This document shows positions 1-12,765 of a DNA stretch of 12,765 bases, piece by piece. Within the stretch, counting starts at the first letter, position 1. Each line of letters begins with the position of its first letter. Below the pieces are notes generated by a model that saw only the letters and a list, made by a program, of their open reading frames with translations, was not told the origin of the DNA and searched no databases. The stretch is from a virus (taxonomy: Duplodnaviria > Heunggongvirae > Uroviricota > Caudoviricetes). The position numbers and the translations under genes are program-made. Location of the stretch: positions 1-12,765 of the IMG/VR virus record IMGVR_UViG_2634166457_000023; one strand, written 5' to 3'.

Positions 1-1119
1 TCAAATAACCAACTTAACCCATTCCTGACCTCGAGTATCGTTATAGCGATCGGTGGTTGCCTGGACTTTATGTCCTAGTAATGTTTTTGTATCGATACCC
101 TGTGCACGGTACAGCCGTTCTGATAGAGAGCGTTGTTCATGAAATGTTGGCGGAGTTTTTCCTGCTGGTGGAATTATCCCAGCCAGATCCCGTGCTTTGG
201 CAAAGTAGTCGCTCAGGTTGTCTTTACTCATCGGCTTTGGTTGTTTCTGGTGCCGACTATGGATTAGATATGGACTTAATATTCGGTCTCGGCACCCATC
301 AATAACTTCTTTTAACGTTATCCCAATGGCATCACAGCGTAGTGTAAGCGGTAACGCCAGACGCATTCCGGTTTTTCCCTGGGTGATATGCAAGTGTTCG
401 TTCCACACATCTGAAAAACGCATGTGGCAAATGTCATCACGGCGCTGACCAGTAACAATCGCAAGAAGCATTGCGTTACGGATAAAGTGTTTTTCAGGCG
501 TTGCGTTGTAAATTTTTTGCCAGTCTTCCAGGGGGAGCCTGGCTCTGGTTACTTTAGGGATCGGTTTACGGGTAGCCTCCGGAGGATTCCATCCAGGAGG
601 AACTTCCCCTGCATGCTGTGCTTCTTTATAAATATCAACCCATAATCCGCGATTTACTCTCGCTGTGCTGACCATGTCTTTATCCAGCCACTCATCCAGT
701 ATTAATGCAAAGTCTCTTACTTCCAGTTCTTTCAATGGGTGGTTTCCCAGACGGGAAACCAGGTATGCAGCCATTCGAGTTTTTTCTTTGTGAGTTGTAG
801 CTGCAATATCTCCATTTTTCAGTCGCGTGTCCTGTATTTTCAGATATCGATCAACCCATGCCTTTAATCTGATACCCCGACGTTTTGTTGCTGACGGACT
901 TTCATCAATTTTGCGCATGAAATATTCAGCTTCTGCTGCAGCTATTCGCTGATTGGCTGTGGAAGCGATTTTTTCTGCCTTACCTTTGTCTGTTCCGAGT
1001 CCGTGAAATTTTCCAGTCACAGGATTTTTATACTGGTAGTAAACTCTGCCAGTTCTGCGATCAAACTTTTCGTAAAGACCGGCTACGTCAGTGCTGTTTT
1101 TTCGTGGCCTCGGTGACAT
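1..1119 (-). CDS. int: Tyrosine recombinase, lambda-family integrase (372 aa, complete)
   Basis: Full ORF. N-terminal YYQYKNPVTGKFHGLG arm-binding-like segment; catalytic-domain motifs LLAIVTGQRRDDI, PPTFHEQRSLSERLY and LLGHK...TTDRY. These align by eye with lambda Int as I recall it. Confidence 0.9.
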   Translation of the reverse strand: MSPRPRKNSTDVAGLYEKFDRRTGRVYYQYKNPVTGKFHGLGTDKGKAEKIASTANQRIAAAEAEYFMRKIDESPSATKRRGIRLKAWVDRYLKIQDTRLKNGDIAATTHKEKTRMAAYLVSRLGNHPLKELEVRDFALILDEWLDKDMVSTARVNRGLWVDIYKEAQHAGEVPPGWNPPEATRKPIPKVTRARLPLEDWQKIYNATPEKHFIRNAMLLAIVTGQRRDDICHMRFSDVWNEHLHITQGKTGMRLALPLTLRCDAIGITLKEVIDGCRDRILSPYLIHSRHQKQPKPMSKDNLSDYFAKARDLAGIIPPAGKTPPTFHEQRSLSERLYRAQGIDTKTLLGHKVQATTDRYNDTRGQEWVKLVI

Positions 1120-1357
1120 GAGTTAAAATCTCCTTCAGTGTATCATCATCGCCAGTATGAATTTCCGGCGCAATTCCCGTTTCACCAGGTCCAACAAATA
1201 CTGCTCGGCGATCTATCAGCCAACGCCCACGAATTTTTTGTGGTCTTGGAACGATGTATCCTAGTTTTCCGTATTTCACCAGGGTAGTGTTTGTTATTGG
1301 GAGACTGAACCGTTTTGGCTTCCACTCATCGAGCGTTATCAGGTACTGTTCGCTCAT
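1088..1357 (-). CDS. xis: Excisionase-like protein (Xis), 89 aa
   Basis: Small ORF directly upstream of int, overlapping it by 32 bp as in lambda xis-int. ATG at 1357 preceded by GGAG at about 8 nt. Segment LITLDEWKPKRFSLP...RGRWLIDRRAV resembles the lambda Xis N-terminus. The track start at 1366 is a GTG 9 nt further upstream. Confidence 0.65.
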   Translation of the reverse strand: MSEQYLITLDEWKPKRFSLPITNTTLVKYGKLGYIVPRPQKIRGRWLIDRRAVFVGPGETGIAPEIHTGDDDTLKEILTHVTEATKKQH

Positions 1358-1375
1358 GGCTATCACTCCGGAACG

Positions 1376-1407
1376 CGCCAGTTGCAGAATACCAACGACA
1401 ACTGGCG
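1376..1407. other. Inverted repeat CGCCAGTTG / CAACTGGCG (9-bp arms, 14-nt loop) in the exo-xis intergenic spacer
   Basis: Perfect 9-bp inverted repeat read directly at 1376-1384 and 1399-1407. No U-run follows on either strand. Confidence 0.4.
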
Positions 1408-1418
1408 ACGGTTGAACA

Positions 1419-3815
1419 TTAAAAATCAGCCTGACTCGGGATCAGTTTTTGCCAGATAGCTGAAACGTATTTTGCCTGGTAACGAGCGTCATCAAGTGCA
1501 TTATGGCGCTCACCTTCGAATGGGATAGCCGTTCTGGCATCGAAGTCTATGGCTTTCCCCAGCTCAACGATTGTGCATACATCGCGATCGTTGTGGTAGT
1601 GCCAGGGGCAGGGGATACCCTGTCGTTCGTATGAACGGCGTAAAATCACGTTGTCGAAGTTGGCTCCATTTCCCCAGACCTGAACAAAAAATTCACCGGA
1701 GTTTTCGGCGATAAATTCACGCAATTGCAGTAGTGCATCATCTAACGGGATTTCATCGGTCAGAATGGCAGATTGCGCCTCGCGTGATTGCTTAAGCCAC
1801 CATTTAATGGTGTCACGATCAATGACTCCGCCAGCTGTTTCCAGATCGATGGTCTTACTAAATTCCGGTCCCATATCTCCGGTTTGCGGATCGAAAAATA
1901 TTGCACCTATTGAGATAATTGGGGCATCGGGATTTTTTCCCATCGTTTCAAGGTCGATCATCAGATGAATACCCGCTCTGCTGGTGGATGTACTTTCATG
2001 ATGACCGTTCACCTTAATTGGGTGATCTGCCGCCTCGCCAGTTTCATTATCGCTGGCGTGATACTGATCACCGCCAGCGTCCTCCTTATGAAGATGTTCA
2101 TTGCCTTCCATTTCCTCCGGATTTTTTTCCTGAGATTCAGCCTGATTTTCTCCATTGAATGTTTCCTGGTATGTTGTGTTGCCCATTACCGCACCACAAT
2201 CAGGGCAGCTACCCCCGCCAGCCTGACCGCAGGCGGTACAAACTTTTCCTTCTTCCGGTTCGCTGTTCTGATGCAGTTTTTCTTCTGTCTGCTGTTCATC
2301 ATTTTCCGTTTTTTTAACTTCATTTGAGGGGATGTGATGACCGGGAATCCATTTCGGATCATTCGGGTCGCTAATCCCTTCAACGAACTCACCACGTGAT
2401 GCTGCCAGTAATTTGTCCGCATCGATCGGAGTTTTGGGCGGAATGTTTTTTCTGGCTTCGTGGAGTTCTGCCCGCAGTTCCTGGTATTTCGCATCAACAG
2501 AATTTACCTGTGGCTGAGCATCTATCGACGGTGTGTCCTGATGATGTTCAGTTGCATCCGGTTCCACTGCTTCAGGCGTTGTCTGTTCATTTGCCATTGC
2601 GCCAGATGGTTGCAGTTTTTCTTCATCATCCTGTTTTCCTTCTTCTGTTACACGCTGCGGCATCGGGGCAGAGGATCGACCGCAGGCAATATCCACGATT
2701 TCCGGATCAGGGTTGGCATGATCGGTTTCAGTAAGTACCTTGTTCAGATATTCAGTGACATGCGCAGGGATGACCTCGATACCAATTGGTGCTTCTTTCA
2801 CGGATGCAACCACGATGGCGCGGGAATAATCCAGCCCGCCAGGCATGGTGATGAATTTGTCGCGGAAAACAGAAAAGGGCGGTTTATTTTCAGCGATAAT
2901 TTCCTCGACACGTTTAGCGTGTGCAGGATGAAGGTTATAGATGTCCACGTCCATTGAACGGGCCAGTACGCCAGTGGCTACGTCGCGTGCCAGTGATGCC
3001 TGATCGTGGATGAAACCGTCGCCGCGATCGGTAAGGTTCCCGCCGCCAGCATTAGCACCGGAAGCCGTGCGGGTGATACGCGAAACACGATTCCCTTTCA
3101 TCCACTCTTTTGTCAGCAGACCGCGATCGGTGTAGTCAGCGTCCAGGTATGCTTCGATAAAAGCGGTCATCATCCCAAAATCTGAATTTTTCGGATTAGG
3201 GAAAACTTTGTCAGTATCACGCACCAGTTTGTGGAGGTCGCGAATTTCCAGCGGGTCGAGCAGGCTGGTTTTGTGGGAAACAGCCAGGGCAGTAACTGCC
3301 GGTAGTTCTTCATCTCGTGCAATGTGTAATGTCTGGAGTTCGTCGCGTGAAACGTGCGTTACTGGTTTTTCGCTGCCGTGTTGAGCAAGCCAACGAATGG
3401 GCAGTTCCTGACCGGAAACAGGCAGGAGCATGCTCTCCTCAATCTCAGTCATGTCTTCGCCGTTGACGTTGGTATTGTCAGTGCTTGCTGGTTTGTCCTG
3501 AACAGAGGGGGAAGGGCCGATAAATGTCATTGTGATGCCATCTTTCCCGCCTTTTTCATAGCGGTTGCAGAATTCCGTATCAAACACGCCTTCTGGCGGG
3601 AGGTCATCAACAACGGGCAAATTGACGCGGACGGGTTTTTTAAAGTCGTCTTCATCATAATCGTTGTCATCCATTGCGGTAATGCAGCGGGAGATTGCAA
3701 CAGATAATTTTTTTGCTGTAGTCCAGTAAAAACCACCTTTAATTCCCAGGCGTTTTCTTACTTTGTCATTTTTTGCTTCGCAATATAGTGCAAATTCTTC
3801 TTTATCAGTGCTCAT
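1419..3815 (-). CDS. Exodeoxyribonuclease VIII-like protein (798 aa): RecE-like N-terminal region, acidic/Cys-containing linker, C-terminal DEDDh (DnaQ-like) 3'-5' exonuclease domain
   Basis: N-terminal approx 400 aa resemble the non-catalytic N-terminus of E. coli RecE from memory ([12 protein letters not shown]...[21 protein letters not shown]...). The C-terminal approx 190 aa (coords approx 1419-1990) carry DEDDh motifs: IDLETMG (Exo I), [12 protein letters not shown] (Exo II), [13 protein letters not shown] (Exo III). A CTAC...CPDC pair sits in the linker near 2195-2245. Confidence 0.85.
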
Positions 3816-3908
3816 TATTGATAAACCTCATCACAGATTTAAGGGTGAACAAATCTCTGCCATTGCTGACATATAAGAATGAAACTGGATGTTTATTACT
3901 GTGCTGTT

Positions 3909-4100
3909 TTAAAATCCTGCCGGGATTTCGTTATTATCCTGGTGAATAACTTTATCGACCGGATAACAGTTGCCTGGAATTTTCTGTTCGGTTGCTGCTG
4001 CCATACATTCCTGCATTGTTCTGTGAATACTGACTGCAATATCAACTGGCTCTCCGGAAACAAGAAAAATCGTCAGAATAAGTGCAAATACTGGATTCAT
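3909..4100 (-). CDS. ydfD: YdfD-like small membrane/lysis protein (63 aa)
   Basis: ATG at 4100 overlaps the upstream stop (ATGA). AAAGGA lies 8 nt upstream. N-terminal hydrophobic helix MNPVFALILTIFLVSG. Size and position after dicB match Qin ydfD from memory. Confidence 0.6.
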   Translation of the reverse strand: MNPVFALILTIFLVSGEPVDIAVSIHRTMQECMAAATEQKIPGNCYPVDKVIHQDNNEIPAGF

Positions 4101-4285
4101 TGTGCACATCCTTTTGGCATCAGACGTAAACGGGCCAGCATTGAAACAATGCATACTTTATTTAATAACTCCCGTTCGTGTTTTCTTTTGTTAATGGCCT
4201 CTTCAGTAAATACAGGATTACTGATAGTGACACCAATTTCAAAAAAACCTTCAGACGTATTAACGTTTGGTAATAACATTTTCAT
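4097..4285 (-). CDS. dicB: Cell-division inhibitor DicB (62 aa)
   Basis: Product MKMLLPNVNTSEGFFEIGVTISNPVFTEEAINKRKHERELLNKVCIVSMLARLRLMPKGCAQ closely matches my recollection of E. coli DicB. GAGGG lies 7 nt upstream of the ATG at 4285. Lies immediately downstream of the DicF-like sequence. Confidence 0.75.
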   Translation of the reverse strand: MKMLLPNVNTSEGFFEIGVTISNPVFTEEAINKRKHERELLNKVCIVSMLARLRLMPKGCAQ

Positions 4286-4454
4286 TATCGCGCCCTCAAC
4301 AATGAGTTTTGTGATGCGGTGCCTGGTGCCTCCAGGTGACGTTAACCAGTTAACAATTAACGCCGGATATAGAGAATCCACCCATAACACTGTTTTTGGT
4401 TTTAACTGTTCCGCGTGCGCTCAGCCGCATTCACCGCATCACAAAATTCACTTT

Positions 4455-4512
4455 AAAAAGGGCGGTAGAGCAGTCACGGAGTAAAACTGATACCGCCAAA
4501 CGTCACCAGAAA
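4455..4512 (-). ncRNA. dicF: DicF small RNA (antisense inhibitor of ftsZ translation), with 3' terminator-like hairpin and U-run
   Basis: Minus-strand sequence UUUCUGGUGACGUUUGGCGGUAUCAGUUUUACUCCGUGACUGCUCUACCGCCCUUUUU matches my memory of E. coli DicF almost base for base. It ends in a GGCGGUA...UACCGCC stem plus U5. Located upstream of dicB as in Qin. Confidence 0.75.
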
Positions 4513-4846
4513 ATTGATAACAGAGGGCGTTGCAGCGGGGTTGTCACTTAAGCGTATGGTCAACCTGACAACCCGGTGTCCTCAACGGGGAAGGAATAAC
4601 CCCGCCATACTTACCGCCGCGCCATTTCGCGGAGTGCCACAACCGGAAGCGCACGGTCGACGAAAATTTAACGACAGGCTGTCTATGAACCAGCTACCTC
4701 GCCGTGCGCTTTCGCGTTATGGTCTGACTTTTCAGGGAAATATCCTTTCAGTAAACTGTCAGTGCCGGATGCTCACCCGTGTCCGGCGCACGCACTCCAC
4801 CTCACCCGTGGAGAACTCCTTAATCACCAACCCTCAGGAGGGTGAA

Positions 4847-5122
4847 ATGTCGACTGAAAATGATGAAATCATTAACTCCCTGATACGCCAGATTAATAAT
4901 TTTGATAAAGCATTGCAGCATGCTGCGGCGCGTAGTGATATAACTCTTTTAGCAATTTCATTTCTTGCATCTGTTATGGATAAAAATGAAGTCGTACGAC
5001 AGAGTCTTGTTGATTATATCGACTCGCTTCAACCCGGCACTTTCAATCATGAGAGCTTCAATCATGAGAAAGAGCATGTTAAATCTGTAATTAATTCTCT
5101 TGTTTTGAATCAAAAGAATTAA
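4847..5122 (+). CDS. Hypothetical protein (91 aa), AT-rich cargo gene convergent with the leftward operon
   Basis: ATG at 4847 preceded by GGAGG with a 5-nt spacer. Product looks helical with an in-frame FNHES/FNHEK repeat. Marked drop in GC relative to flanks. The upstream part of track ORF 4514..5122 is Arg-rich and treated as non-coding. Confidence 0.5.
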   Translation: MSTENDEIINSLIRQINNFDKALQHAAARSDITLLAISFLASVMDKNEVVRQSLVDYIDSLQPGTFNHESFNHEKEHVKSVINSLVLNQKN

Positions 5123-5420
5123 TGCTTTTTGTTGCAAAGTAATTTTCAAGGGGGTCTATTCGAATCCCTTTCTTTTTCATTAACAAGCCAAACCCCTTAT
5201 CAATGATGTCCATTAATTCCAGGAAGTATTTTTCATGTAAATCCTGGTTATCAGAGAGCTGCTTCTCTTCGTACAGCCCGATAAAGGCACGACGCACGTT
5301 ACCGGATATAGTATCGATGGTTTCTTTTTCTACGGTACTAAGGTCAAGAGTCGCCAGTTGAGAACGAACTATATTCGATGCCATTTCTTGGAATGGTATT
5401 GGTAAATCTTTAAATTCCAT
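5091..5420 (-). CDS. Hypothetical protein (109 aa), AT-rich cargo gene in the leftward operon
   Basis: ATG at 5420 preceded by GAGG at 6 nt. Protein-like composition with no family recognised. Its 3' end overlaps the convergent gene at 4847-5122 by 32 bp. Confidence 0.55.
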   Translation of the reverse strand: MEFKDLPIPFQEMASNIVRSQLATLDLSTVEKETIDTISGNVRRAFIGLYEEKQLSDNQDLHEKYFLELMDIIDKGFGLLMKKKGIRIDPLENYFATKSINSFDSKQEN

Positions 5421-5455
5421 CGTCAACCTCATCAGTCAGTTATTCACTCGGATAC

Positions 5456-5662
5456 TTAACCATTCTGGCAACATTTAATGCCGCCGCTTCTGTCAGGCTG
5501 GCGATGCTCTGGTCCAGTTCGGCCATTTTTTTTGGCCTGTAGCGTCTTGGAATCATTGACCCATTTCAGGTCCTGCGCAGCCTTAACTTTTTGTTTCATC
5601 CACTCATAAATCTCATCATCGGTATAGCCTGGTGCGATGATGATGGGTTCTGGTTTCTGCAT
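5456..5662 (-). CDS. ydfC: YdfC-like small protein (68 aa as read); probably frame-disrupted at an A8 tract
   Basis: ATG at 5662 with GAGGAA RBS. After the homopolymer (plus T8 at 5526-5533) the read frame encodes low-complexity NGRTGPEHRQPDRSGG, while the neighbouring frame encodes helix-like MAELDQSIASLTEAAALNVARMVKYPSE ending at 5440. Position after ydfB matches Qin ydfC. Confidence 0.5.
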   Translation of the reverse strand: MQKPEPIIIAPGYTDDEIYEWMKQKVKAAQDLKWVNDSKTLQAKKNGRTGPEHRQPDRSGGIKCCQNG

Positions 5663-5691
5663 AATGATTCCTCGCGGTGCTGTTTCGCTTA

Positions 5692-5820
5692 TTAGCCGTT
5701 AGATTTTGCCGAACTGGAAAGCGCCTCTTTAAACTCACTAAAGCTGAGAGCGTCTTCGCCTTCGGCAAGGCCTTCGAAGTATTCTTCGTAAGCCTTTTCC
5801 ATGATTGCGTCGAAATCCAT
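5692..5820 (-). CDS. ydfB: YdfB-like small acidic protein (42 aa)
   Basis: ORF below the track threshold, found by hand: MDFDAIMEKAYEEYFEGLAEGEDALSFSEFKEALSSSAKSNG. Strong AGGTGA RBS. Lies between the YdfA-like and YdfC-like genes. The track ORF 5616..5825 is in a different frame. Confidence 0.55.
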   Translation of the reverse strand: MDFDAIMEKAYEEYFEGLAEGEDALSFSEFKEALSSSAKSNG

Positions 5821-5821
5821 A

Positions 5822-5977
5822 TCACTCACCTGAGTTTCTTTCCAGCCAGCGACGCGCGCCAGATTCGGTTTTAAACGTGGTGCTTTTGGTATACGTCATC
5901 GCGGTGAACGTACCGTCCTGGTTTGGGAACACGCCGCACACCAGAGATTCGTTGTTGCCAAGATCGATAGTATCCAT
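5822..5977 (-). CDS. ydfA: YdfA/YdaF-like small protein (51 aa, DUF1391-like)
   Basis: Hand-found ORF MDTIDLGNNESLVCGVFPNQDGTFTAMTYTKSTTFKTESGARRWLERNSGE. GAGG RBS 7 nt upstream. First gene downstream of the PL-like promoter. Family assignment is from memory. Confidence 0.6.
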   Translation of the reverse strand: MDTIDLGNNESLVCGVFPNQDGTFTAMTYTKSTTFKTESGARRWLERNSGE

Positions 5978-6149
5978 GCTGACCTCATTTCCCCTTAACG
6001 CCGGGGTAGCGGAACAAAAACCTGCTGCATAGTTAAAAGTTGAACCCCGCCGTCACTTTCGAATGCCTCGGGCTGGCTACATTGACCCCTGACCACTGCC
6101 TGGTAACTCGAAGTATTGCCCGGCGTTCTGTGGGGCGGGGTGGGTTGGT

Positions 6150-6200
6150 ATCTTTAGTTTAATAAACATTAAACTTAAGTCAAGCAAAAACTAAACCGCG
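6150..6200 (-). promoter_or_regulatory. OL/PL-like operator-promoter for the leftward early operon
   Basis: Minus-strand -35 TTGACT (plus 6178-6183) flanked by half-sites TTTAGT (6153-6158) and ACTAAA (6190-6195). The 11-mer GTTTAATAAAC is the exact reverse complement of GTTTATTAAAC in the OR region. Confidence 0.5.
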
Positions 6201-6214
6201 GGGCGTAACAAACA

Positions 6215-6237
6215 CAACGCTTTTGATAAAGTCGTTG
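6215..6237 (-). terminator. Weak terminator-like hairpin (CAACG...CGTTG) downstream of the toxin gene
   Basis: 5-bp inverted repeat 6215-6219 / 6233-6237 with a 13-nt loop, followed on the minus strand by UGUUUGUU. Sits between the toxin stop (6268) and the PL region. Confidence 0.25.
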
Positions 6238-6267
6238 CGGTTGTTATGTTTCTATTGGTAGTGAAAG

Positions 6268-6546
6268 TTAGGGAAACTGGCGTCTTGCGTGGATCACGTT
6301 TACTACTTCAACGCTTGATGTTGTTACGCGGTATAGAATTATATAGTTAGGGTGGGCCACAATCTCACGCAAGCCAGGTACTCTGTCGCTTGGTGGGTAT
6401 AAATACGGATGTTCGGATAATGGCAGCACACAACCCCTTAATCGCTGCCATAAGCGTTCAGCCGCATCTATGTCGAAACGAGCAATATAACTAGTTATAT
6501 CATCTAGGTCGGTATCTGCGCTTTCAAGCCATAACACGGGTAACAT
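6268..6546 (-). CDS. parE: ParE-family toxin (92 aa), ParE2-like, of a three-gene repressor-antitoxin-toxin operon
   Basis: C-terminal LREIVAHPNYIILYRV...VEVVNVIHARRQFP is typical of ParE/RelE-fold toxins. ATG at 6546 lies 1 nt after the antitoxin stop. The track start at 6642 is rejected. Confidence 0.8.
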   Translation of the reverse strand: MLPVLWLESADTDLDDITSYIARFDIDAAERLWQRLRGCVLPLSEHPYLYPPSDRVPGLREIVAHPNYIILYRVTTSSVEVVNVIHARRQFP

Positions 6547-6547
6547 T

Positions 6548-6739
6548 TTACTGCTTGCTCCGTTCCTTCCGCATTTTAGCAAAGCGTTCTGCCATTCTGC
6601 GCTCAACTTCGTCATGGGGAATTGCTGGGCGCGGATCTGCAAGGCTCGTTGCTACTTTCGCACGCAGCCATTCGTTGTAACTGTTTTCTTGTTCAATGGT
6701 TTCAAATTCAGAAACCATTGGTGAAAGGGCTCTATTCAT
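6548..6739 (-). CDS. Small antitoxin (63 aa), PaaA-like partner of the ParE toxin
   Basis: ATG at 6739 preceded by GGAGGA at 5 nt. Size and position match the PaaA-type antitoxins of paaR-paaA-parE operons described in E. coli O157 prophages (from memory). Starts 20 nt after the repressor stop. Confidence 0.65.
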   Translation of the reverse strand: MNRALSPMVSEFETIEQENSYNEWLRAKVATSLADPRPAIPHDEVERRMAERFAKMRKERSKQ

Positions 6740-6759
6740 GTTTCCTCCGGTTTTATAAC

Positions 6760-7131
6760 TCAGGCGCGGCGGCATTTTTGCGCCGCAATCCATCTCGCTA
6801 TGAGATCTTCCATTGATTCTTTTTTCTGCTTTAACTCGTTGATTATCTGGCGTTGCTCATCCTCAGGGAAGGCTGAAAAAATCTGCAATAATTCCAGTTG
6901 ATTAGACGTTAACCCTGCATGTGGTGGAGAAACCTCCGGTTGTTCTGCGTATTCCGCATCCAGATACCCTTCCGGCATCCCGTATGTTTGCTCTATTCTT
7001 CTGGCAGCCTTTTCTCCAAACGAGGCTCTCCCACTCATTAGTTGAGATAGGTAGCTCTTCTCTTTGGGTGGCAGAGTTTTATCTTTAAACCACTCCTTGA
7101 GACGTAAACGGCGAATTTCTTTTTTTTGCAT
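6760..7131 (-). CDS. HTH (XRE-type) prophage repressor, CI/DicA-like, lacking a peptidase S24 domain (123 aa); possibly also the PaaR-type regulator
   Basis: N-terminal HTH KEKSYLSQLMSGRASFGEKAARRIEQTYGMP. C-terminal LTSNQLELLQIFSAFPEDEQ resembles DicA as I recall it. Divergent from the cro-like gene. ATG at 7131 has no SD but sits 6 nt after a GATAAT -10, so likely leaderless like lambda cI. The track GTG start at 7194 is rejected. Confidence 0.75.
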   Translation of the reverse strand: MQKKEIRRLRLKEWFKDKTLPPKEKSYLSQLMSGRASFGEKAARRIEQTYGMPEGYLDAEYAEQPEVSPPHAGLTSNQLELLQIFSAFPEDEQRQIINELKQKKESMEDLIARWIAAQKCRRA

Positions 7132-7137
7132 GTGGTA

Positions 7138-7220
7138 ATTATCTTTAGTAATCACTAAACAAGCAAATACTTGACTTAATGGTTTATTAAACACTAAACT
7201 CGCAAAAAAACACTAAACCG
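7138..7220. promoter_or_regulatory. OR-like region with back-to-back divergent promoters (PRM-like leftward, PR-like rightward) and three ACTAAA operator half-site positions
   Basis: Palindrome TTTAGTaatcACTAAA at 7144-7159 sits in the spacer of the PRM-like promoter (-35 TTGCTT as plus 7161-7166, -10 GATAAT as plus 7138-7143). PR-like -35 TTGACT at 7171-7176 with -10 near 7194-7200. ACTAAA recurs at 7193-7198 and 7212-7217. Confidence 0.55.
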
Positions 7221-7228
7221 AGGAAGGT

Positions 7229-7531
7229 ATGACATTAAAAGAGTTTATTAAATCATTGAGGGTTGGTGATGCTAAGAAATTCGCGGCCAGACTAGGTGTA
7301 TCGCCATCTTACTTATCGCAAATGGCGTCTGGACGAGCAGCTATATCTCCAACCCGCGCCCTTATGATCGAATCTGCGACGGAAGGCCAAGTAAGTAGGG
7401 CGGAGCTACGACCCCATGATTGGGAGCTTATTTGGCCTGAGTATGCGAGCGGCATTCGTTTGGGGCAAACGCATGTAGTTCATGCTGAAGGTGATTGTAG
7501 AGCATGCTTATCTGATGGAGTTGATTCATGA
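7229..7531 (+). CDS. ydaS: Cro-like HTH protein, YdaS family (100 aa)
   Basis: GAGGAAGG RBS. HTH AKKFAARLGVSPSYLSQMASG and ELRPHDWELIWPE motif typical of YdaS-type proteins. First gene of the rightward operon. Confidence 0.75.
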   Translation: MTLKEFIKSLRVGDAKKFAARLGVSPSYLSQMASGRAAISPTRALMIESATEGQVSRAELRPHDWELIWPEYASGIRLGQTHVVHAEGDCRACLSDGVDS

Positions 7532-7953
7532 AAATCAAGCATGAACACATCCGCATGGCGATGAATGCCTGGGCGCATCCTGATGGCGAAAAAGTACCGG
7601 CTGCGAAAATTACCAAAGCGTATTTCGAACTGGGAATGACGTTCCCGGAACTGTATGACGACAGCCATCCCGAAGCCCTGGCTCGCAATACCCAGAAAAT
7701 TTTCCGCTGGGTAGAGAAAGATACCCCTGATGCTGTTGAAAAAATTCAGGCGTTGTTACCTGCGATCGAAAAGGCAATGCCGCCTCTGCTGGTGGCCCGA
7801 ATGCGCAGTCACAGTTCAGCCTATTTTCGGGAACTGCTGGAGACGCGGGAGCGGCTGGTGAGGGATGCAGATGATTTTATTGCGGTGGCAATTACTGGTT
7901 TCAACCAGATTAATCGCGGTGGCCCGGCAGGAAATGCCGTGGTGATGCACTAA
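7528..7953 (+). CDS. ydaT: YdaT-family protein (141 aa), CII-like position
   Basis: ATGA overlap with the ydaS-like stop. Size and position match Rac YdaT. Family assignment is from memory. Confidence 0.7.
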   Translation: MKIKHEHIRMAMNAWAHPDGEKVPAAKITKAYFELGMTFPELYDDSHPEALARNTQKIFRWVEKDTPDAVEKIQALLPAIEKAMPPLLVARMRSHSSAYFRELLETRERLVRDADDFIAVAITGFNQINRGGPAGNAVVMH

Positions 7954-7976
7954 AAGCACGGTGTTCGGGGTTTTTT

Positions 7977-8909
7977 ATGAGCAGCAAGCTTCATGGTCTT
8001 GTCTGGGAAGGGTGCGCCTTCACCGGCATGATCTTATCCAGGGTGGCAGTGATGGCTCGTCTTGCAGACTACAGCAATGATGAAGGTGTGTCATGGCCTG
8101 CAGTAGAGACCATTCGTCGTCAGATTGGGGCAAAGAGTGAATCAACGGTTAAAGCGGCGATAGCGGAACTGGAAAAGAGCGGCTGGCTGACAAAGGAAGA
8201 GCGTAAGGTTGGTGGACGTAACGTAAGCAATATCTACCGGCTTAATGTGGAAAAACTCGAAGCTGCAGCAGCGGCAGCGCGAGAGGCATATAAACCGAAA
8301 AGAAAAATTAGCCCGGCAAAAAATGACCCGTTAACGGTTGACCCGTCAAATTTTGATGGATCAACCGTTGATAAAAAACGGTCGGTTAGGGGGGCGATGA
8401 TTGACCCCGATCCGTCAGTATTAAAATCTGATCCGTCAGATAAAAGATCTTCTTGTCCGGACGCTTCGCAACCGGACCCGCAGACGGCTGAACAGGATTT
8501 TTTAACCCGACACCCTGACGCGGTTGTGTTCAGTGCGAAAAAACGCCAGTGGGGAAGTCAGGAAGATTTGGCGTGCGCACAGTGGATCTGGGGACGAATC
8601 GTGAGTCTTTACGAGCAGGCAGCCAGCGATGATGGCGAGATCACTCGACCGAAAGAACCAAACTGGACCGCGTGGGCCAATGACGTGCGCACAATGCGGA
8701 TGCTGGATGGCAGAACTCACAGACAAATTTGCGAAATGTTTGGGCGGGTACAGCGGGATCCATTCTGGGTAAAAAACATCATGAGCCCGTCAAAGCTCCG
8801 CGAAAAATGGGACGAACTGGTCATCCGCCTGGGGCGTTCGCCTGTACAGCGTTGTGTGAATCACATTTCTGAACCGGACACCGAAATTCCACCGGGCTTC
8901 AGGGGGTAA
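7977..8909 (+). CDS. Phage replication initiation protein (310 aa): N-terminal HTH, repeat-rich middle, C-terminal DnaT-like region
   Basis: N-terminal VSWPAVETIRRQIGAKSESTVKAAIAELEKSGWL is typical of phage replication-initiator HTH domains. The middle encodes DP/DPS peptide repeats over DNA iterons. Lies in the lambda O position. Confidence 0.7.
   Translation: MSSKLHGLVWEGCAFTGMILSRVAVMARLADYSNDEGVSWPAVETIRRQIGAKSESTVKAAIAELEKSGWLTKEERKVGGRNVSNIYRLNVEKLEAAAAAAREAYKPKRKISPAKNDPLTVDPSNFDGSTVDKKRSVRGAMIDPDPSVLKSDPSDKRSSCPDASQPDPQTAEQDFLTRHPDAVVFSAKKRQWGSQEDLACAQWIWGRIVSLYEQAASDDGEITRPKEPNWTAWANDVRTMRMLDGRTHRQICEMFGRVQRDPFWVKNIMSPSKLREKWDELVIRLGRSPVQRCVNHISEPDTEIPPGFRG
8325..8442. repeat. Iteron-like repeats and palindromes inside the replication gene (putative origin of replication)
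   Basis: Four copies of GAYCCGTYAR (8325-8337, 8340-8350, 8409-8420, 8430-8440). Palindromes CCGTTAACGG, TTGACCCGTCAA and ATCTGATCCGTCAGAT. A-rich tract just upstream at 8291-8324. Confidence 0.4.
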
Positions 8910-8949
8910 GTGTTTATTTCAGGTCATGAGGTAATTTTCAGGAGGACTT

Positions 8950-9369
8950 GTGGCAAAAGTTTTTACACAAGAAGAGCGGGAAAAAATTAAAGGGCAGGTT
9001 GTTGAACTCGTACGCCAGAGTGGGCGCGAGACGTTACGACAACTGGAAGCTAAAACCGGGGCAACAAGATATCTGATGAGCGTTCTGGCCAGAGAACTGG
9101 TTGCCAGTGGCGATGTATACAACTCCGGCTACGGGTTATTCCCGTCTGAACAGGCTCGTAAGGACTGGCAAAACGCCCGCAAAAAACTCTCGAGGGCAAA
9201 GCTGAAGAAACCATCTGTGGTTGATCCGGACCTTATCTGGTCATTACCAGACGGAGAGATACGTCGCTATGACAGACGTCTGAACATAATCTGTCGCGAG
9301 TGCCGGAAGAGTGAGGTTATGCAGCGAGTTTTGGTGTTTTACAGGGGTAATAACGGATCAACGATATGA
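8950..9369 (+). CDS. Hypothetical protein (139 aa), possible winged-helix N-terminus
   Basis: GTG start at 8950 with GGAGG 4 nt upstream. The stop overlaps the next start (ATGA). No family recognised. Confidence 0.55.
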   Translation: MAKVFTQEEREKIKGQVVELVRQSGRETLRQLEAKTGATRYLMSVLARELVASGDVYNSGYGLFPSEQARKDWQNARKKLSRAKLKKPSVVDPDLIWSLPDGEIRRYDRRLNIICRECRKSEVMQRVLVFYRGNNGSTI

Positions 9370-9659
9370 GGGTTTATATTGCAGGGCTGATGACCGGGTA
9401 TAAAAATTTCAACCGTGAGGCATTTCACAAGGCGGAAGAGGAGCTGAAGCGGGAAGGGTATACAGTCTTAAACCCGGCAGTACTTCCGGACGGGCTGACA
9501 CAGCCACACTACATGGATATCTGCATGGCAATGATTCGTTGTGTGGATGCGATTTACATGCTGAAAGGTTGGCAGCGGTCAGCAGGCGCTAAGGCAGAGC
9601 TGGCACTGGCGGAGAAGCTGGGGCATGCAGTTATTTTTCAGGAGGTAATCAGTGAGTGA
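9366..9659 (+). CDS. DUF4406-family protein (97 aa), nucleoside 2-deoxyribosyltransferase-like fold
   Basis: MRVYIAGLMTGYKNFNREAFHKAEEELKREGYTVLNPA...DAIYMLKGWQRSAGAKAELALAEKLG matches the DUF4406 pattern from memory. Confidence 0.75.
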   Translation: MRVYIAGLMTGYKNFNREAFHKAEEELKREGYTVLNPAVLPDGLTQPHYMDICMAMIRCVDAIYMLKGWQRSAGAKAELALAEKLGHAVIFQEVISE

Positions 9660-10069
9660 AATTAATTACCAGGCACTGCGTGTTGCAGGCATTTGCATCA
9701 AAGGAGAGTGACGTGGAAATAAAACCAGAAGATGAGTTAAGTAATATTGTTTTATTTCCTGTAAAAGAGGATGACCCGCGTAATCAGGTTAATTTTCTTT
9801 ATGAGCCATCGGAAAGACCATATTGCCATCACGCTTCTGTCCGGGTTGATGAAAAAGAGCGTCAGGTCCGATGCAAAATCTGCGGTGCGGTTGTGGAGCC
9901 ATTTGACTGGATGCTCTCTGTGGCGAAAAGAGAAACCAGACTGGCAGATGATGTAAGGCTCTTGCGCCAGGAGGAACGGGAAAGGCGGAAAAATATAGAA
10001 AAGTTAATTCAGATTGAGCGTAACGCGAAAGCGCGGATACGCAGGGCGACAAAATCCAGAACTGAATAA
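9656..10069 (+). CDS. Hypothetical Cys/His-containing protein with basic coiled-coil C-terminus (137 aa from GTG 9656; 118 aa if from GTG 9713)
   Basis: CHH...CKIC motif then a Arg/Glu-rich helical tail. GTG 9656 overlaps the upstream stop (GTGA), with GGAGG 10 nt upstream. Alternative GTG 9713 has AAGGAG at 6 nt. Confidence 0.55.
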   Translation: MKLITRHCVLQAFASKESDVEIKPEDELSNIVLFPVKEDDPRNQVNFLYEPSERPYCHHASVRVDEKERQVRCKICGAVVEPFDWMLSVAKRETRLADDVRLLRQEERERRKNIEKLIQIERNAKARIRRATKSRTE

Positions 10070-10161
10070 TTAAATTTAGTAGTGTTAAAAATTTAATCCT
10101 TAACCGGAGGGATTTCTGTACCCTCAGAACATCAGGAGGCAGCCCGAAAGGGCGGTAAGAA

Positions 10162-10380
10162 ATGGCTACATTATTCAGAAAAGAATATCTGCGAAGAAGC
10201 AGGGCTATAGAACTCTTGTTTCTCATTCTGTTTATCGTGTTGATGATACCGATATCCCCGTTAATTCTGGTATGGGGAATTGGGAAAATAATTGAGCCAG
10301 TTATTGAATTGTATACCGACGTTGTATGGGCGTCGTTCAACACACTGCACAACAAAATCAACCCATATAAGGAAAGCTGA
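10162..10380 (+). CDS. Small membrane protein (72 aa), one predicted transmembrane helix
   Basis: Hydrophobic stretch LLFLILFIVLMIPISPLILVWGIG. The next gene starts 1 nt after its stop. RBS region is structured (see hairpin finding). Confidence 0.5.
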   Translation: MATLFRKEYLRRSRAIELLFLILFIVLMIPISPLILVWGIGKIIEPVIELYTDVVWASFNTLHNKINPYKES

Positions 10381-10381
10381 T

Positions 10382-10747
10382 ATGGCACTGACGAAAAAAC
10401 AACGCGCAGAACTGCGCATGAAGTTCGGTGGTCGCTGCGCTTATTGCGGCTGCGAACTTGGCGAAAAGTGGCATGCAGACCATGTCAAACCGGTCATTCG
10501 TTTTGATGGAAATATGCTTCACCAGGAACGTGACGATATATCCAACATGGTTCCGGCATGCCACCCATGCAATCTGCACAAGCATTGCAGTAGCCTGGAA
10601 GATTATCGGCGAATTATCAGTGATGGTCGTCGTGAATTCCTTGCGTCCGGGAAAGGCAAAGCGCTGGTTCGTATGGGATTGGTTGAAATGAAATCTGACC
10701 CGGTTGTGTTCTGGTTTGAAAAATATCAAGAAGGGGCTACAGCATGA
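10382..10747 (+). CDS. HNH endonuclease (121 aa)
   Basis: [20 protein letters not shown] ... [10 protein letters not shown]: Cys pairs around an H-N-H core. AAGGAAA RBS. The track start at 10292 is rejected as a non-coding extension. Confidence 0.8.
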
Positions 10748-11091
10748 CCACTTTTACCAGAGAGCAGTTAATAGCTCACGCAGAGGAGACTATTGAAGCA
10801 CAGAGACTGTGCATACCGGGCACAATCGACCATGACATCATCCGCACATATAAGATGGATATTGCTGTTCTGGAAATCGCACTGGCATCGCTGGCAGCAG
10901 AGCCAGCCGGTAAATTGCATGAATACAAACCAGTGGGATATCAGCGTCTGGTCGATGAGTTAACCATGCTGGTAAAGCAGTTAACCTGGCAACTGAGGAA
11001 AGCGAAGTCAGACTGCAAATTACCGGATAAGGCGATGAGTTATCTGGAGCGGAACGGACTGATAAGCGTGGAAGATGATATTTTACGATGA
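10744..11091 (+). CDS. Hypothetical phage protein (115 aa)
   Basis: ATGA overlap with the HNH stop. Protein-like composition with no family recognised. Confidence 0.55.
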
Positions 11092-11171
11092 CCTGGCCTG
11101 AGGCATTCACAACGGTAGGAATTGCAATGGCGGTGGCGCTGGTGGTGTATTCGATTTGCCGCTGGGGATAA
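11088..11171 (+). CDS. Possible tiny hydrophobic peptide (27 aa)
   Basis: [31 protein letters not shown] overlap with the upstream stop. Ends just before a terminator-like hairpin. Below normal gene-calling thresholds. Confidence 0.3.
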
Positions 11172-11181
11172 ATCGCCGAAA

Positions 11182-11215
11182 AAAGATCCCGACACAAACA
11201 TGAGCCGGGATCTTT
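11182..11215. terminator. Bidirectional terminator-like hairpin between convergent transcription units
   Basis: 10-bp perfect inverted repeat AAAGATCCCG / CGGGATCTTT with a 14-nt loop. T/A-rich flanks give a U-run on either strand. Lies between the rightward operon end (11171) and the convergent ParE gene end (11296). Confidence 0.45.
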
Positions 11216-11295
11216 GATTTATATAGCCTACGAATCCGCCAGTAAGAGAGGGGGCGGACGGTTTATTCTAACACCGGAATGATGTGGGTAAAAGT

Positions 11296-11595
11296 TTATA
11301 AGAAATCGGTTTCATAACTTTGCCCACCATGATAGATACCGACAATAAAGACTTTTCTGCCATCAACGGCAAAAGCAATAATCGTTCTGTGGCGGAAATG
11401 AGTTACCCGCATCCCCTGGCGAATATCATCGCGTTTATTGCCCCGATGCGGGAATGTAGAAAACCCATCAAGATAATCAAGAAGCGCATTGGCATAATTG
11501 TCAGCAATGACGTTCCCTGCTTTCTCCGTTATATATCTGTGCAGGTTGATTATTTGTTGTTCGGCCTCAGGAGTAATGATGACTTCATATGTCAT
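11296..11595 (-). CDS. parE: ParE/RelE-family toxin (99 aa)
   Basis: Size, composition and position (start 5 nt after the stop of a ribbon-helix-helix antitoxin) are typical of ParE. C-terminal RKVFIVGIYHGGQ-type strand motif. Confidence 0.8.
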   Translation of the reverse strand: MTYEVIITPEAEQQIINLHRYITEKAGNVIADNYANALLDYLDGFSTFPHRGNKRDDIRQGMRVTHFRHRTIIAFAVDGRKVFIVGIYHGGQSYETDFL

Positions 11596-11600
11596 GCAGA

Positions 11601-11858
11601 TTACTTCCCGGATCGAATCGCGGCGCGAACCTGTGAAATGGAGCGTCCGTTGTTTGGATTTTCACGGATAGAATCAAGAGAGGGGGCGGCTGAATGCGTT
11701 AACCACGCTTCGATTGCTTTATCGCGCTCATTCAGTGCGCGAAGCCCTTCACGAATGACCTCGCTTTCTGAAGCATAGGCACCGGAAGCCACACGGGCGC
11801 GCACCATGTCAGCCATCTCGTTAGTTAATGTAATGCTGAATTGTTGGGTTGTACGCAT
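11601..11858 (-). CDS. parD: ParD-family antitoxin, ribbon-helix-helix (85 aa)
   Basis: FSITLTNEMADMVRARVASGAYASESEVIREGLRAL is a classic ParD/RHH signature. ATG at 11858 with GTGAGG RBS. The track start at 11921 is rejected. Confidence 0.8.
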   Translation of the reverse strand: MRTTQQFSITLTNEMADMVRARVASGAYASESEVIREGLRALNERDKAIEAWLTHSAAPSLDSIRENPNNGRSISQVRAAIRSGK

Positions 11859-11886
11859 GGTAAACCTCACGGAGTAGGATAGAACA

Positions 11887-11924
11887 CTATTCGATGATAG
11901 CACGCTGCCTGTTGACGACAACAG
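11887..11924 (-). promoter_or_regulatory. Putative parDE promoter with palindromic operator
   Basis: Minus-strand -35 TTGTCG (plus 11916-11921), 16-nt spacer, -10 TATCAT (plus 11894-11899). The 16-bp palindrome CTGTTGacgaCAACAG (11909-11924) overlaps the -35. Confidence 0.4.
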
Positions 11925-11993
11925 AAATCAGAGACAATATTGCCGCACGCCAGCCTGAACAACTGGCACCTGCTGCGCCAGCAGAGAAAACAG

Positions 11994-12272
11994 ATGGCGC
12001 ACAAGACCAAATTACACAATTCTGATAATTCAGCCGCCTTTGCCAGCAGGCACGGGCGGCGTTCTCATGCATTCAAATATGACTGGTACCAGCATGACCC
12101 ATGCACTGAAGAACAGGCAGAGTGGCTGATTCAGAACTACCGCAGACGTGGTTACGAGTTTCAGAAAGACCTCAGTCTTGACTTCCGACACTGGATAATT
12201 TCAGTCAGGCTCCCTTATTCCGAACGCCCACCGCGTCCGTCCCGCACATTCCAGCAACGGATCTGGAGGTAA
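11994..12272 (+). CDS. Hypothetical protein (92 aa from ATG 11994)
   Basis: ORF with a weak RBS. The track start at 11940 is a TTG. Its stop is followed by GGAGG and the next ORF start. No family recognised. Confidence 0.4.
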   Translation: MAHKTKLHNSDNSAAFASRHGRRSHAFKYDWYQHDPCTEEQAEWLIQNYRRRGYEFQKDLSLDFRHWIISVRLPYSERPPRPSRTFQQRIWR

Positions 12273-12273
12273 C

Positions 12274-12765
12274 GTGCGGGTATTGCTTCGACCTGTTCTG
12301 GTACCGGAACTCGGGCTGGTGGTCCTTAAGCCGGGCCGTGAGTCCATGCAGGTATTTCATAATCACCGGGTGCTGGTGGAGTCAGAACCGAAAAGCATGC
12401 TCGGTCTGCCGTCCGGAGTCGTCCCTGCCGTTCGCCAGCCGCTGGCGGAGGATAAATCATTACTGCCATTTTTCAGCAATGAGCGTGTGATTCGTGCTGC
12501 TGGCGGCGCTGGCGCACTGTCTGACTGGCTCTTGCGTCATGTTAAATCCTGCCAGTGGCCTCATGGTGATTATCACCACAGCGAAACCGTCATACATCGT
12601 TACGGTACCGGCGCGATGGTGTTGTGCTGGCACTGCGACAACCAGCTGCGTGACCAGACATCCGAATCACTCGGGCAACTTGCTCATCAAAACCTGTCAG
12701 CATGGATGATTGACGTCATACGCTATGCAATGAATGGCACACAGGAGCGTGAATTATCGCTGGCT
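12274..12765 (+). CDS. Hypothetical Cys/His-rich phage protein, 3'-truncated by the window edge (possibly DUF968-like)
   Basis: Frame open from GTG 12274 (GGAGG 4 nt upstream) to the window end. Alternative ATG at 12346. Motifs CQWPHGDYHH and CWHCDNQ suggest metal binding. Family guess is low confidence. Confidence 0.5.
   Translation, partial: MRVLLRPVLVPELGLVVLKPGRESMQVFHNHRVLVESEPKSMLGLPSGVVPAVRQPLAEDKSLLPFFSNERVIRAAGGAGALSDWLLRHVKSCQWPHGDYHHSETVIHRYGTGAMVLCWHCDNQLRDQTSESLGQLAHQNLSAWMIDVIRYAMNGTQERELSLA

Follow-up and report, generated by a model that had tools for sequence, protein, structure and literature searches.

The stretch of DNA analysed here (the window; 12,765 nt, positions 1 to 12,765 of the Caudoviricetes record IMGVR_UViG_2634166457_000023) is the early region of a lambdoid Escherichia coli prophage. 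On its minus strand lie a parD antitoxin gene and, immediately downstream, a parE toxin gene, which we read with considerable confidence as the core of a self-contained type II ParD–ParE toxin–antitoxin cassette, set antisense in the prophage at 11173–11943. From the cro-like gene (7229) to the end of the window, these two are the sole minus-strand genes, and all others point rightward. The features of the locus are as follows.

11173–11943, no strand assigned: whole parDE cassette, 771 bp, holding terminator, parE, parD, operator and promoter, and bounded by loss of homology
11182–11215, minus strand: predicted intrinsic terminator hairpin of parDE, an inverted repeat flanked by an A-tract and a U-tract, possibly bidirectional
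11296–11595, minus strand: parE toxin gene, 99 amino acids (aa), 100% identical to WP_000220600.1
11601–11858, minus strand: parD antitoxin gene, 85 aa, 100% identical to WP_001260977.1
11865–11868, minus strand: putative Shine–Dalgarno sequence GAGG, 6 nt 5′ of the parD ATG, read directly from the sequence
11874–11889, minus strand: best operator candidate, TAGTGTTCTATCCTAC, the window copy of TAGGATTNAATCCTAC, just 3′ of the −10 and over the predicted transcription start
11894–11921, minus strand: predicted sigma-70 promoter, with −35 TTGTCG (11921–11916), a 16-nt spacer and a TG-extended −10 TATCAT (11899–11894)
11909–11924, no strand assigned: imperfect palindrome, CTGTTGACGACAACAG on the plus strand, 7 of 8 pairs, overlapping the −35

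The gene pair and its protein families

The list of open reading frames (ORFs) for the window has two minus-strand entries here, 11296–11595 and 11601–11921. The first is parE; within the second, ATG 11858 is the most likely start of the antitoxin, and it is there that the PGAP annotation of identical loci begins ParD. An upstream start at TTG 11921, giving a protein of 106 aa, was rejected because PGAP and all homologues begin with MRTTQQ and because the extension would overlap the promoter. Five nucleotides separate the parD stop codon from the parE ATG in a bicistron that places the antitoxin first. We compared the locus with 17 related genome loci and 2 plasmid loci (IncP-1 kluAB and S. 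meliloti pSymB). Of the 17 genome loci, 15 have a ParD homologue directly 5′ of the toxin, and the remaining two are partial toxin matches with no callable upstream ORF; parD is likewise upstream of the toxin in both plasmid loci.

An earlier, sequence-only reading of this DNA had described a ParD antitoxin and a ParE/RelE toxin on the minus strand, and the ORFs together with profile matches above the model cutoffs bear out that description. In Pfam, the toxin matches PF05016 (ParE_toxin; E = 3.2e-10, 40.9 bits, cutoff 23) and the antitoxin PF03693 (ParD_antitoxin; E = 1.6e-7, 32.1 bits, cutoff 21). The antitoxin also matches the NCBIfam model TIGR02606, 'ParD family antitoxin' (E = 1.5e-14, 53.8 bits, cutoff 46.2); the same NCBIfam profile search returned no model for the toxin. 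In PHROGs, the toxin falls into phrog_5232 'toxin' (E = 3.4e-43) and the antitoxin into phrog_6494 'antitoxin' (E = 1.7e-56), both under the category 'moron, auxiliary metabolic gene and host takeover'. ParD has a ribbon-helix-helix (RHH) domain at its N terminus (residues ~6–51) and a putative toxin-binding tail at its C terminus, and its residues 3–51 align to the RHH part of ParD structures in the PDB (3KXE, 7YCV, 7B22/7R5A, 6X0A, 8C24 and 5CEG). The pair is already catalogued: RefSeq names the identical proteins ParD antitoxin and RelE/ParE family toxin.

An AlphaFold (AF2) model of the toxin, made from 20 homologues, reached a predicted local distance difference test score (pLDDT) of 83.7. 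Its elements (E4–7, H9–26, H28–46, E61–67, E71–78 and E81–89) include the long N-terminal alpha-hairpin, H9–26 and H28–46, that is typical of ParE. The best 23 Foldseek matches of the model in the PDB are all ParE-type toxins, with template-modelling (TM) scores of 0.62–0.71, and include those of M. opportunistum, P. aeruginosa, M. tuberculosis, V. cholerae and C. crescentus as well as O157 ParE2; the structures of RelE, YoeB, YafQ and HigB rank below them, at TM ≤ 0.5. Because the structural matches rank ParE toxins first, we file the toxin in the ParE branch and not in the RelE branch. The modelling supports a ParE fold for the toxin, and the profile and PDB matches a ParD-family RHH domain for the antitoxin.

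An alternative with the same operon logic is that the toxin cleaves mRNA on the ribosome in the manner of RelE, or that it has the ParE fold but a target other than gyrase. PF05016 spans both ParE and RelE-type proteins, the PGAP label goes only as far as 'RelE/ParE family', NCBIfam holds no equivalog for the toxin, and its identity to characterised ParE proteins is 12–24%. We consider this alternative quite unlikely in view of the structural ranking and the ParE-typical hairpin. Membership of the RelE-type mRNA interferases was rejected on the grounds that the structures of RelE, YoeB, YafQ and HigB rank below every ParE and that the partner is a ParD-family RHH protein, not RelB.

Predicted promoter, operator and terminator

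The promoter predicted upstream of parD scores 9 of 12 in the promoter scan, with the TG extension, for the hexamers TTGTCG and TATCAT, and is the only plausible promoter on the minus strand. Key positions of its −10 are kept despite substitutions between orthologues, which have TATCAT in E. coli, TATTAT in Salmonella and TAAAAT in Yersinia, in agreement with the earlier suggestion that parDE has a putative promoter of its own. The hexamer TAGTGT (11889–11884), corresponding to the −10 of distant homologues, was rejected as the −10 in the window, there being no acceptable −35 at 16–18 nt upstream of it.

Comparison of the homologous loci points to an operator between this promoter and the gene. 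With at most 3 mismatches allowed, 17 of 18 homologous loci spread over the proteobacteria, the window among them, have a family palindrome, TAGGATTNAATCCTA, 31–44 nt before the parD start; the background is 3 matches in 92 kb, an expectation of 0.002 for each 60-nt zone. The sole conserved block 5′ of parD in the alignment reads (A)GTAGGATT(A/T)AATCCTAC(T). In the 12.7-kb window, the copy at 11874–11889 is the only match to the family palindrome on either strand (3 mismatches), and it stands 31 nt before the parD ATG. The DNA-reading N-terminal beta-strand of ParD (RTTQQxSITL) is nearly invariant across the homologous loci, which fits a DNA target shared among them. On this comparative evidence, 11874–11889 is most likely the ParD operator, and a better candidate than the palindrome at 11909–11924. 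In the enterobacterial prophage clade, the promoter is shifted: a new TG-extended −10 lies some 5 nt farther upstream, and the predicted transcription start falls within the palindrome.

Distant ParDE homologues (L008–L016 and L025) have operator and promoter core fused: TAGGAT or TATGAT, the operator's left half, doubles as the −10 hexamer, at a distance of 17 nt from a −35 resembling TTGACN.

The sequence-only reading had placed a 16-bp palindromic operator at 11909–11924. The palindrome is indeed there, with 7 of its 8 pairs; its standing as the main operator fares less well. Repression by occlusion of the −35, with 11909–11924 as the main or a second ParD operator, would be favoured by its overlap with the −35 hexamer and by its inner 14 nt, which are the same in the E. 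coli and Salmonella copies and in an 87%-identical Stx2a-phage copy, the bases on either side varying. RHH repressors, moreover, commonly bind more than one operator site. However, the Yersinia similis orthologue has it broken (CTTATCGTCGTCAACAC) and every distant homologue lacks it, though the RTTQQxSITL strand is nearly invariant, and TGTTG, the half-site of the CTGTTGTCGTCAACAG palindrome, bears no relation to the family motif TAGGAT. Palindromes as good as this one number 7 in the window, about as many as chance would give (5.4 ± 2.2 in Markov shuffles); its position alone is slightly out of the ordinary, 0.058 being the expectation for the 136-bp intergenic region. The conservation may also simply reflect the −35. 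We regard a main or second operator at 11909–11924 as rather unlikely; the palindrome is at most an additional site, and may be no more than the −35 region.

A weak promoter-like match on the plus strand, TTGACG-18-AATATT (11912–11941), lies over the same 11909–11924 palindrome as the minus-strand −35 and faces the rightward genes that follow; the scan puts it at chance level.

Downstream of parE, the hairpin at 11182–11215 has a folding energy of −20.7 kcal/mol (z = −4.8) in the minus-strand RNA, where UUUUUU comes next; in the plus-strand RNA it reaches about −18 kcal/mol and has the weaker tail UUUGAUUU. The terminator scan gave a single match, 11374–11355, which lies inside parE and was disregarded. 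The scan missed 11182–11215 because the loop exceeds its limit, and folding was therefore used. Judged by fold and tail, the hairpin is a convincing candidate terminator for parDE and a moderate one for the rightward transcript. The earlier proposal that it could end both convergent units thus stands on the parDE side and is weakened on the plus strand. Since the rightward transcript must reach RusA and the Q antiterminator downstream, plus-strand termination at the hairpin would have to be partial or overridden. Termination is likewise partial or overridden at the nin terminators of lambda.

One further feature links the region 3′ of parE with the interior of parD:

11244–11257 and 11676–11689, no strand assigned: exact 14-nt direct repeat AAGAGAGGGGGCGG, one copy in the parE 3′ untranslated region and the other inside parD

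Such a repeat is expected 0.01 times by chance, and none of 200 shuffles had two matches. Folding of the minus-strand RNA puts the 3′ untranslated copy into the loop of a small hairpin. Only the E. coli copies of the locus have the repeat. Descent from a parD remnant was considered and rejected, as the similarity does not reach beyond the 14 nt.

The prophage slot upstream of DUF968–RusA–Q

The limits of the cassette were drawn from blastn alignments to related prophages. Homology to a hokD-bearing prophage of MLI109 (L004) ends at 11172 and resumes at 11944; homology to an O157:H7 prophage (L006) resumes at 11948; and beyond 11941 it is lost for the Stx2a phages and ArgO145, whose right-hand neighbours are different. 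Because homology is lost and regained at these points, we place the cassette at about 11173–11943. It lies antisense in a nin-type region, between the replication and HNH genes and the DUF968–RusA–Q block, and carries its own predicted promoter and terminator within its limits. G+C content is 0.43–0.51 in the cassette and 0.48–0.55 in the flanks, with no clear contrast, and a compositional signature of horizontal acquisition was accordingly rejected in this comparison.

Other prophages use the same slot, directly 5′ of a small hypothetical gene and DUF968 (ydfU), for hokD with its own terminator, and in the Qin prophage of K-12 (L005, 2230–3800) the slot holds relB-relE-hokD-rem. Like parDE, the relB-relE-hokD cassette of Qin and the hokD cassettes of O157 and other lambdoid prophages are self-contained toxin–antitoxin units with their own terminators. 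They differ from it in family, relBE being a type II mRNase system and Hok/Sok a type I system, and in orientation, since they run with the rightward operon and not antisense to it. The K-12 relBE–hokD, hokD and parDE cassettes are thus positional alternatives in one prophage slot, and the comparison of prophages indicates that this slot is a toxin–antitoxin hot spot. Its occupation elsewhere by hokD or relBE–hokD supports the description of the pair as an autonomous moron, already offered in the sequence-only reading, as do the sharp junctions (11172/11173 and ~11941–11948) of a discrete block that is absent or replaced in related prophages.

A more elaborate proposal is that the slot upstream of DUF968–RusA–Q is a recombination-delimited hot spot, with parDE, hokD and relBE–hokD as its alleles, and that parDE may sense induction or loss by transcription collision. 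Antiterminated rightward transcription in lytic growth would then meet the parD promoter (PparD) over the ParD operator, cut the supply of labile ParD and free ParE at a defined stage, and the operator would be the control point. We hold this extended proposal to be unlikely.

Immediately left of the cassette is a small hydrophobic ORF of 27 codons on the plus strand (11088–11171; stop codon 11169–11171), whose start codon shares bases with the stop codon of the gene before it (ATGA). One base beyond the ORF's own stop, at the left cassette junction, homology to related prophages breaks off. The ORF is not annotated by PGAP and its frame is broken in MLI109 by a 1-nt deletion, and its coding status is doubtful.

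Conservation, function and related systems

Of 5426 complete E. coli genomes, 324 contain the 901-bp locus at a coverage of at least 80%, and the pair also occurs in Escherichia phage ArgO145. Ratios of nonsynonymous to synonymous substitution (dN/dS) against the Salmonella orthologue are 0.06 for parD and 0.11 for parE, which indicates that the pair is under purifying selection.

By analogy with characterised ParDE systems, the pair would be independently transcribed and autoregulated, and its toxin would be toxic and directed at gyrase. ParD dimers would bind 11874–11889 over the transcription start and repress the operon, with ParE modulating that binding, and the C-terminal tail of ParD would wrap around ParE and neutralise it. 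Should the supply of ParD stop, through loss of the prophage segment, a block of transcription or proteolysis, free ParE would poison DNA gyrase and the cell would arrest or die. Because ParE would be freed upon ParD loss, the module would stabilise the prophage segment that carries it, possibly with a side role against infecting phages or in the control of induction.

Several observations weigh against this interpretation. First, the sequence of the toxin is only weakly similar to those of solved ParE proteins (best 6X0A, E = 0.007), and gyrase targeting is therefore a long-distance extrapolation. Second, the promoter scan is at chance level, with 3 matches against 1.9 ± 1.1, so that position and orthologue comparison were used in its place. 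Third, the left half of the operator candidate is degenerate, agreeing at 5 of 8 positions; the same variant, TAGTGTTCAATCCTA, is found in Yersinia and in S. meliloti pSymB, which suggests that the asymmetric left half is a recurring form and not the product of random decay. Fourth, the PADLOC defence models gave no match to the cassette, and a literature search on the RefSeq accessions, the ArgO145 toxin–antitoxin genes and the operator sequence TAGGATTNAATCCTA found nothing in the library consulted. Finally, relatives lose the toxin: the orthologous gene is frameshifted after about 23 codons in Yersinia similis Y228 (L018, 2501–2784), where parD is intact, and in Stx2a phages a lipoprotein-like gene stands in place of parE, so that the toxin is not selected for everywhere.

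These losses could be taken to mean that the module in the window, too, is a decaying remnant and no longer a working toxin–antitoxin pair. We consider that highly improbable. Neither ORF is interrupted, their products are 100% identical to those of hundreds of genomes, dN/dS is about 0.1, and the predicted promoter, Shine–Dalgarno sequence, operator and terminator are all intact.

The replacement of parE was followed in one Stx2a record. About 38 records of Stx2a-converting phages match the query, and in most only its parD–promoter part aligns. In Stx2a_JNE122398 (L003, 1799–2960), the sole record examined, parD is 87% identical, with a dN/dS of 0.16, and promoter and operator are retained. 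The place of parE is taken by a lipoprotein-like ORF of 93 aa (phrog_9924, no Pfam match), followed by a HigA-like helix-turn-helix gene, an arrangement that amounts to an orphan ParD driving different cargo.

A different primary role for the cassette, in anti-phage defence by abortive infection or in the control of prophage induction and not in addiction or stabilisation, is a further alternative. The cassette occupies a variable accessory slot also used by hokD and relBE–hokD, the PHROGs category of both genes covers morons and host takeover, and among the structural neighbours of the toxin are PfiT and PrpT, ParE-type toxins linked to prophages or plasmids. The convergent orientation would also let antiterminated rightward transcription disturb PparD on induction. 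The absence of a PADLOC match argues against defence, as does the precedent of PaaA2–ParE2, a module of the same prophage type, for which regulation by the CI-like PaaR2 and addictive behaviour have been published and a role in limiting rearrangements, not in defence, has been proposed (PMC8630535). We judge a primary role in defence or induction control to be somewhat unlikely and favour stabilisation of the prophage segment.

Among known systems, the closest are the same proteins under other names: the RefSeq entries, the two PHROGs families and the ArgO145 pair are identical in protein to the pair in the window. Pairs in E. coli prophages of the Stx type share its gene order and antisense placement, and only the mosaic neighbourhood differs, with another right flank in ArgO145 and, in RM10466, a LexA-type immunity region in place of paaR2. 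Outside the enterobacteria, the closest homologues are KluA–KluB of IncP-1 plasmids and the ParDE pairs of rhizobia and Burkholderiaceae, with toxin identities of 43–53%. These have the gene order and upstream palindrome of the window pair; by contrast, they are borne on plasmids or chromosomes and not on phages, and the −10 is, in the majority, the palindrome's left half. Solved ParDE pairs are more distant. C. crescentus ParD1–ParE1 (3KXE), M. opportunistum ParDE (5CEG, 6X0A), V. cholerae ParD2–ParE2 (7R5A) and M. tuberculosis ParDE1 (8C24) share the RHH N terminus, the ParE fold and the antitoxin-first bicistron with the window pair, and differ in the low identity of their toxins given above. 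For V. cholerae ParDE2, autoregulation by antitoxin or complex is an established property (PMC10776004).

Identity with ParDE-I of IncI/IncF plasmids (PMC6614396) was considered and rejected: that system apparently belongs to a different subfamily, and nearly all plasmid homologues of the toxin are in other bacterial groups. Literature searches on kluA/kluB and on the nin region returned papers, none of which characterises this parDE pair. The pair itself has little discovery value, being correctly annotated in hundreds of genomes and of one of the best-known kinds of toxin–antitoxin system. What the analysis adds is a precise operator candidate for an uncharacterised ParDE subfamily that is spread over enterobacterial prophages, IncP-1 kluAB and rhizobial replicons.

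The window holds a second ParE-type module, in the immunity region, and at its left end the integrase:

6268–7131, minus strand: other ParE module, comprising paaR2 (6760–7131), paaA2 (6548–6739) and parE2 (6268–6546)
1–1119, minus strand: integrase gene, followed by an excisionase-like gene and a large exonuclease

The PaaA2 and ParE2 proteins of the window are 100% identical to those crystallised from CP-933P (PDB 5CW7 and 3ZBE), and the module matches the profiles PF21217 and PF05016. In pairwise comparison, BLASTP found no similarity between the two window toxins, though both match PF05016. The view that the prophage has two different ParE-type toxins, one of them wired to immunity, is borne out by this identity and by the lack of BLASTP similarity, which also makes cross-neutralisation unlikely. 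The PaaR2–PaaA2–ParE2 system of CP-933P resembles the window parDE in having a ParE-fold toxin in a lambdoid prophage. It differs in that PaaA2 is intrinsically disordered, has no DNA-binding domain and is unrelated to RHH ParD, and in that its three genes stand under the CI-like PaaR2 and are wired into the lysis–lysogeny switch. A natural prophage with two unrelated ParE modules is convenient for work on cross-talk, and the same two-module prophage, integrated beside potC, is fully annotated in E. coli 2022H047.

The rightward part of the window holds the cro-like gene (YdaS), YdaT, the replication genes and an HNH endonuclease gene, with the DUF968 gene at its right end. Rfam and tRNA scans found nothing inside the cassette. 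Elsewhere in the window, Rfam identified the DicF antisense small RNA (RF00039; 4460–4511, minus strand; 74.1 bits, E = 3.5e-15) in the leftward operon, as in Qin-type prophages. Two further palindromes lie in or beside the immunity-side module. One, TTTAGTAATCACTAAA at 7144–7159, has 7 of 8 palindromic pairs and stands just 5′ of the paaR2 start, between paaR2 and the cro-like gene, where it is probably an OR-type operator; the other, ATATAACTAGTTATAT at 6485–6500, is a perfect 16-bp palindrome within the parE2 coding sequence.

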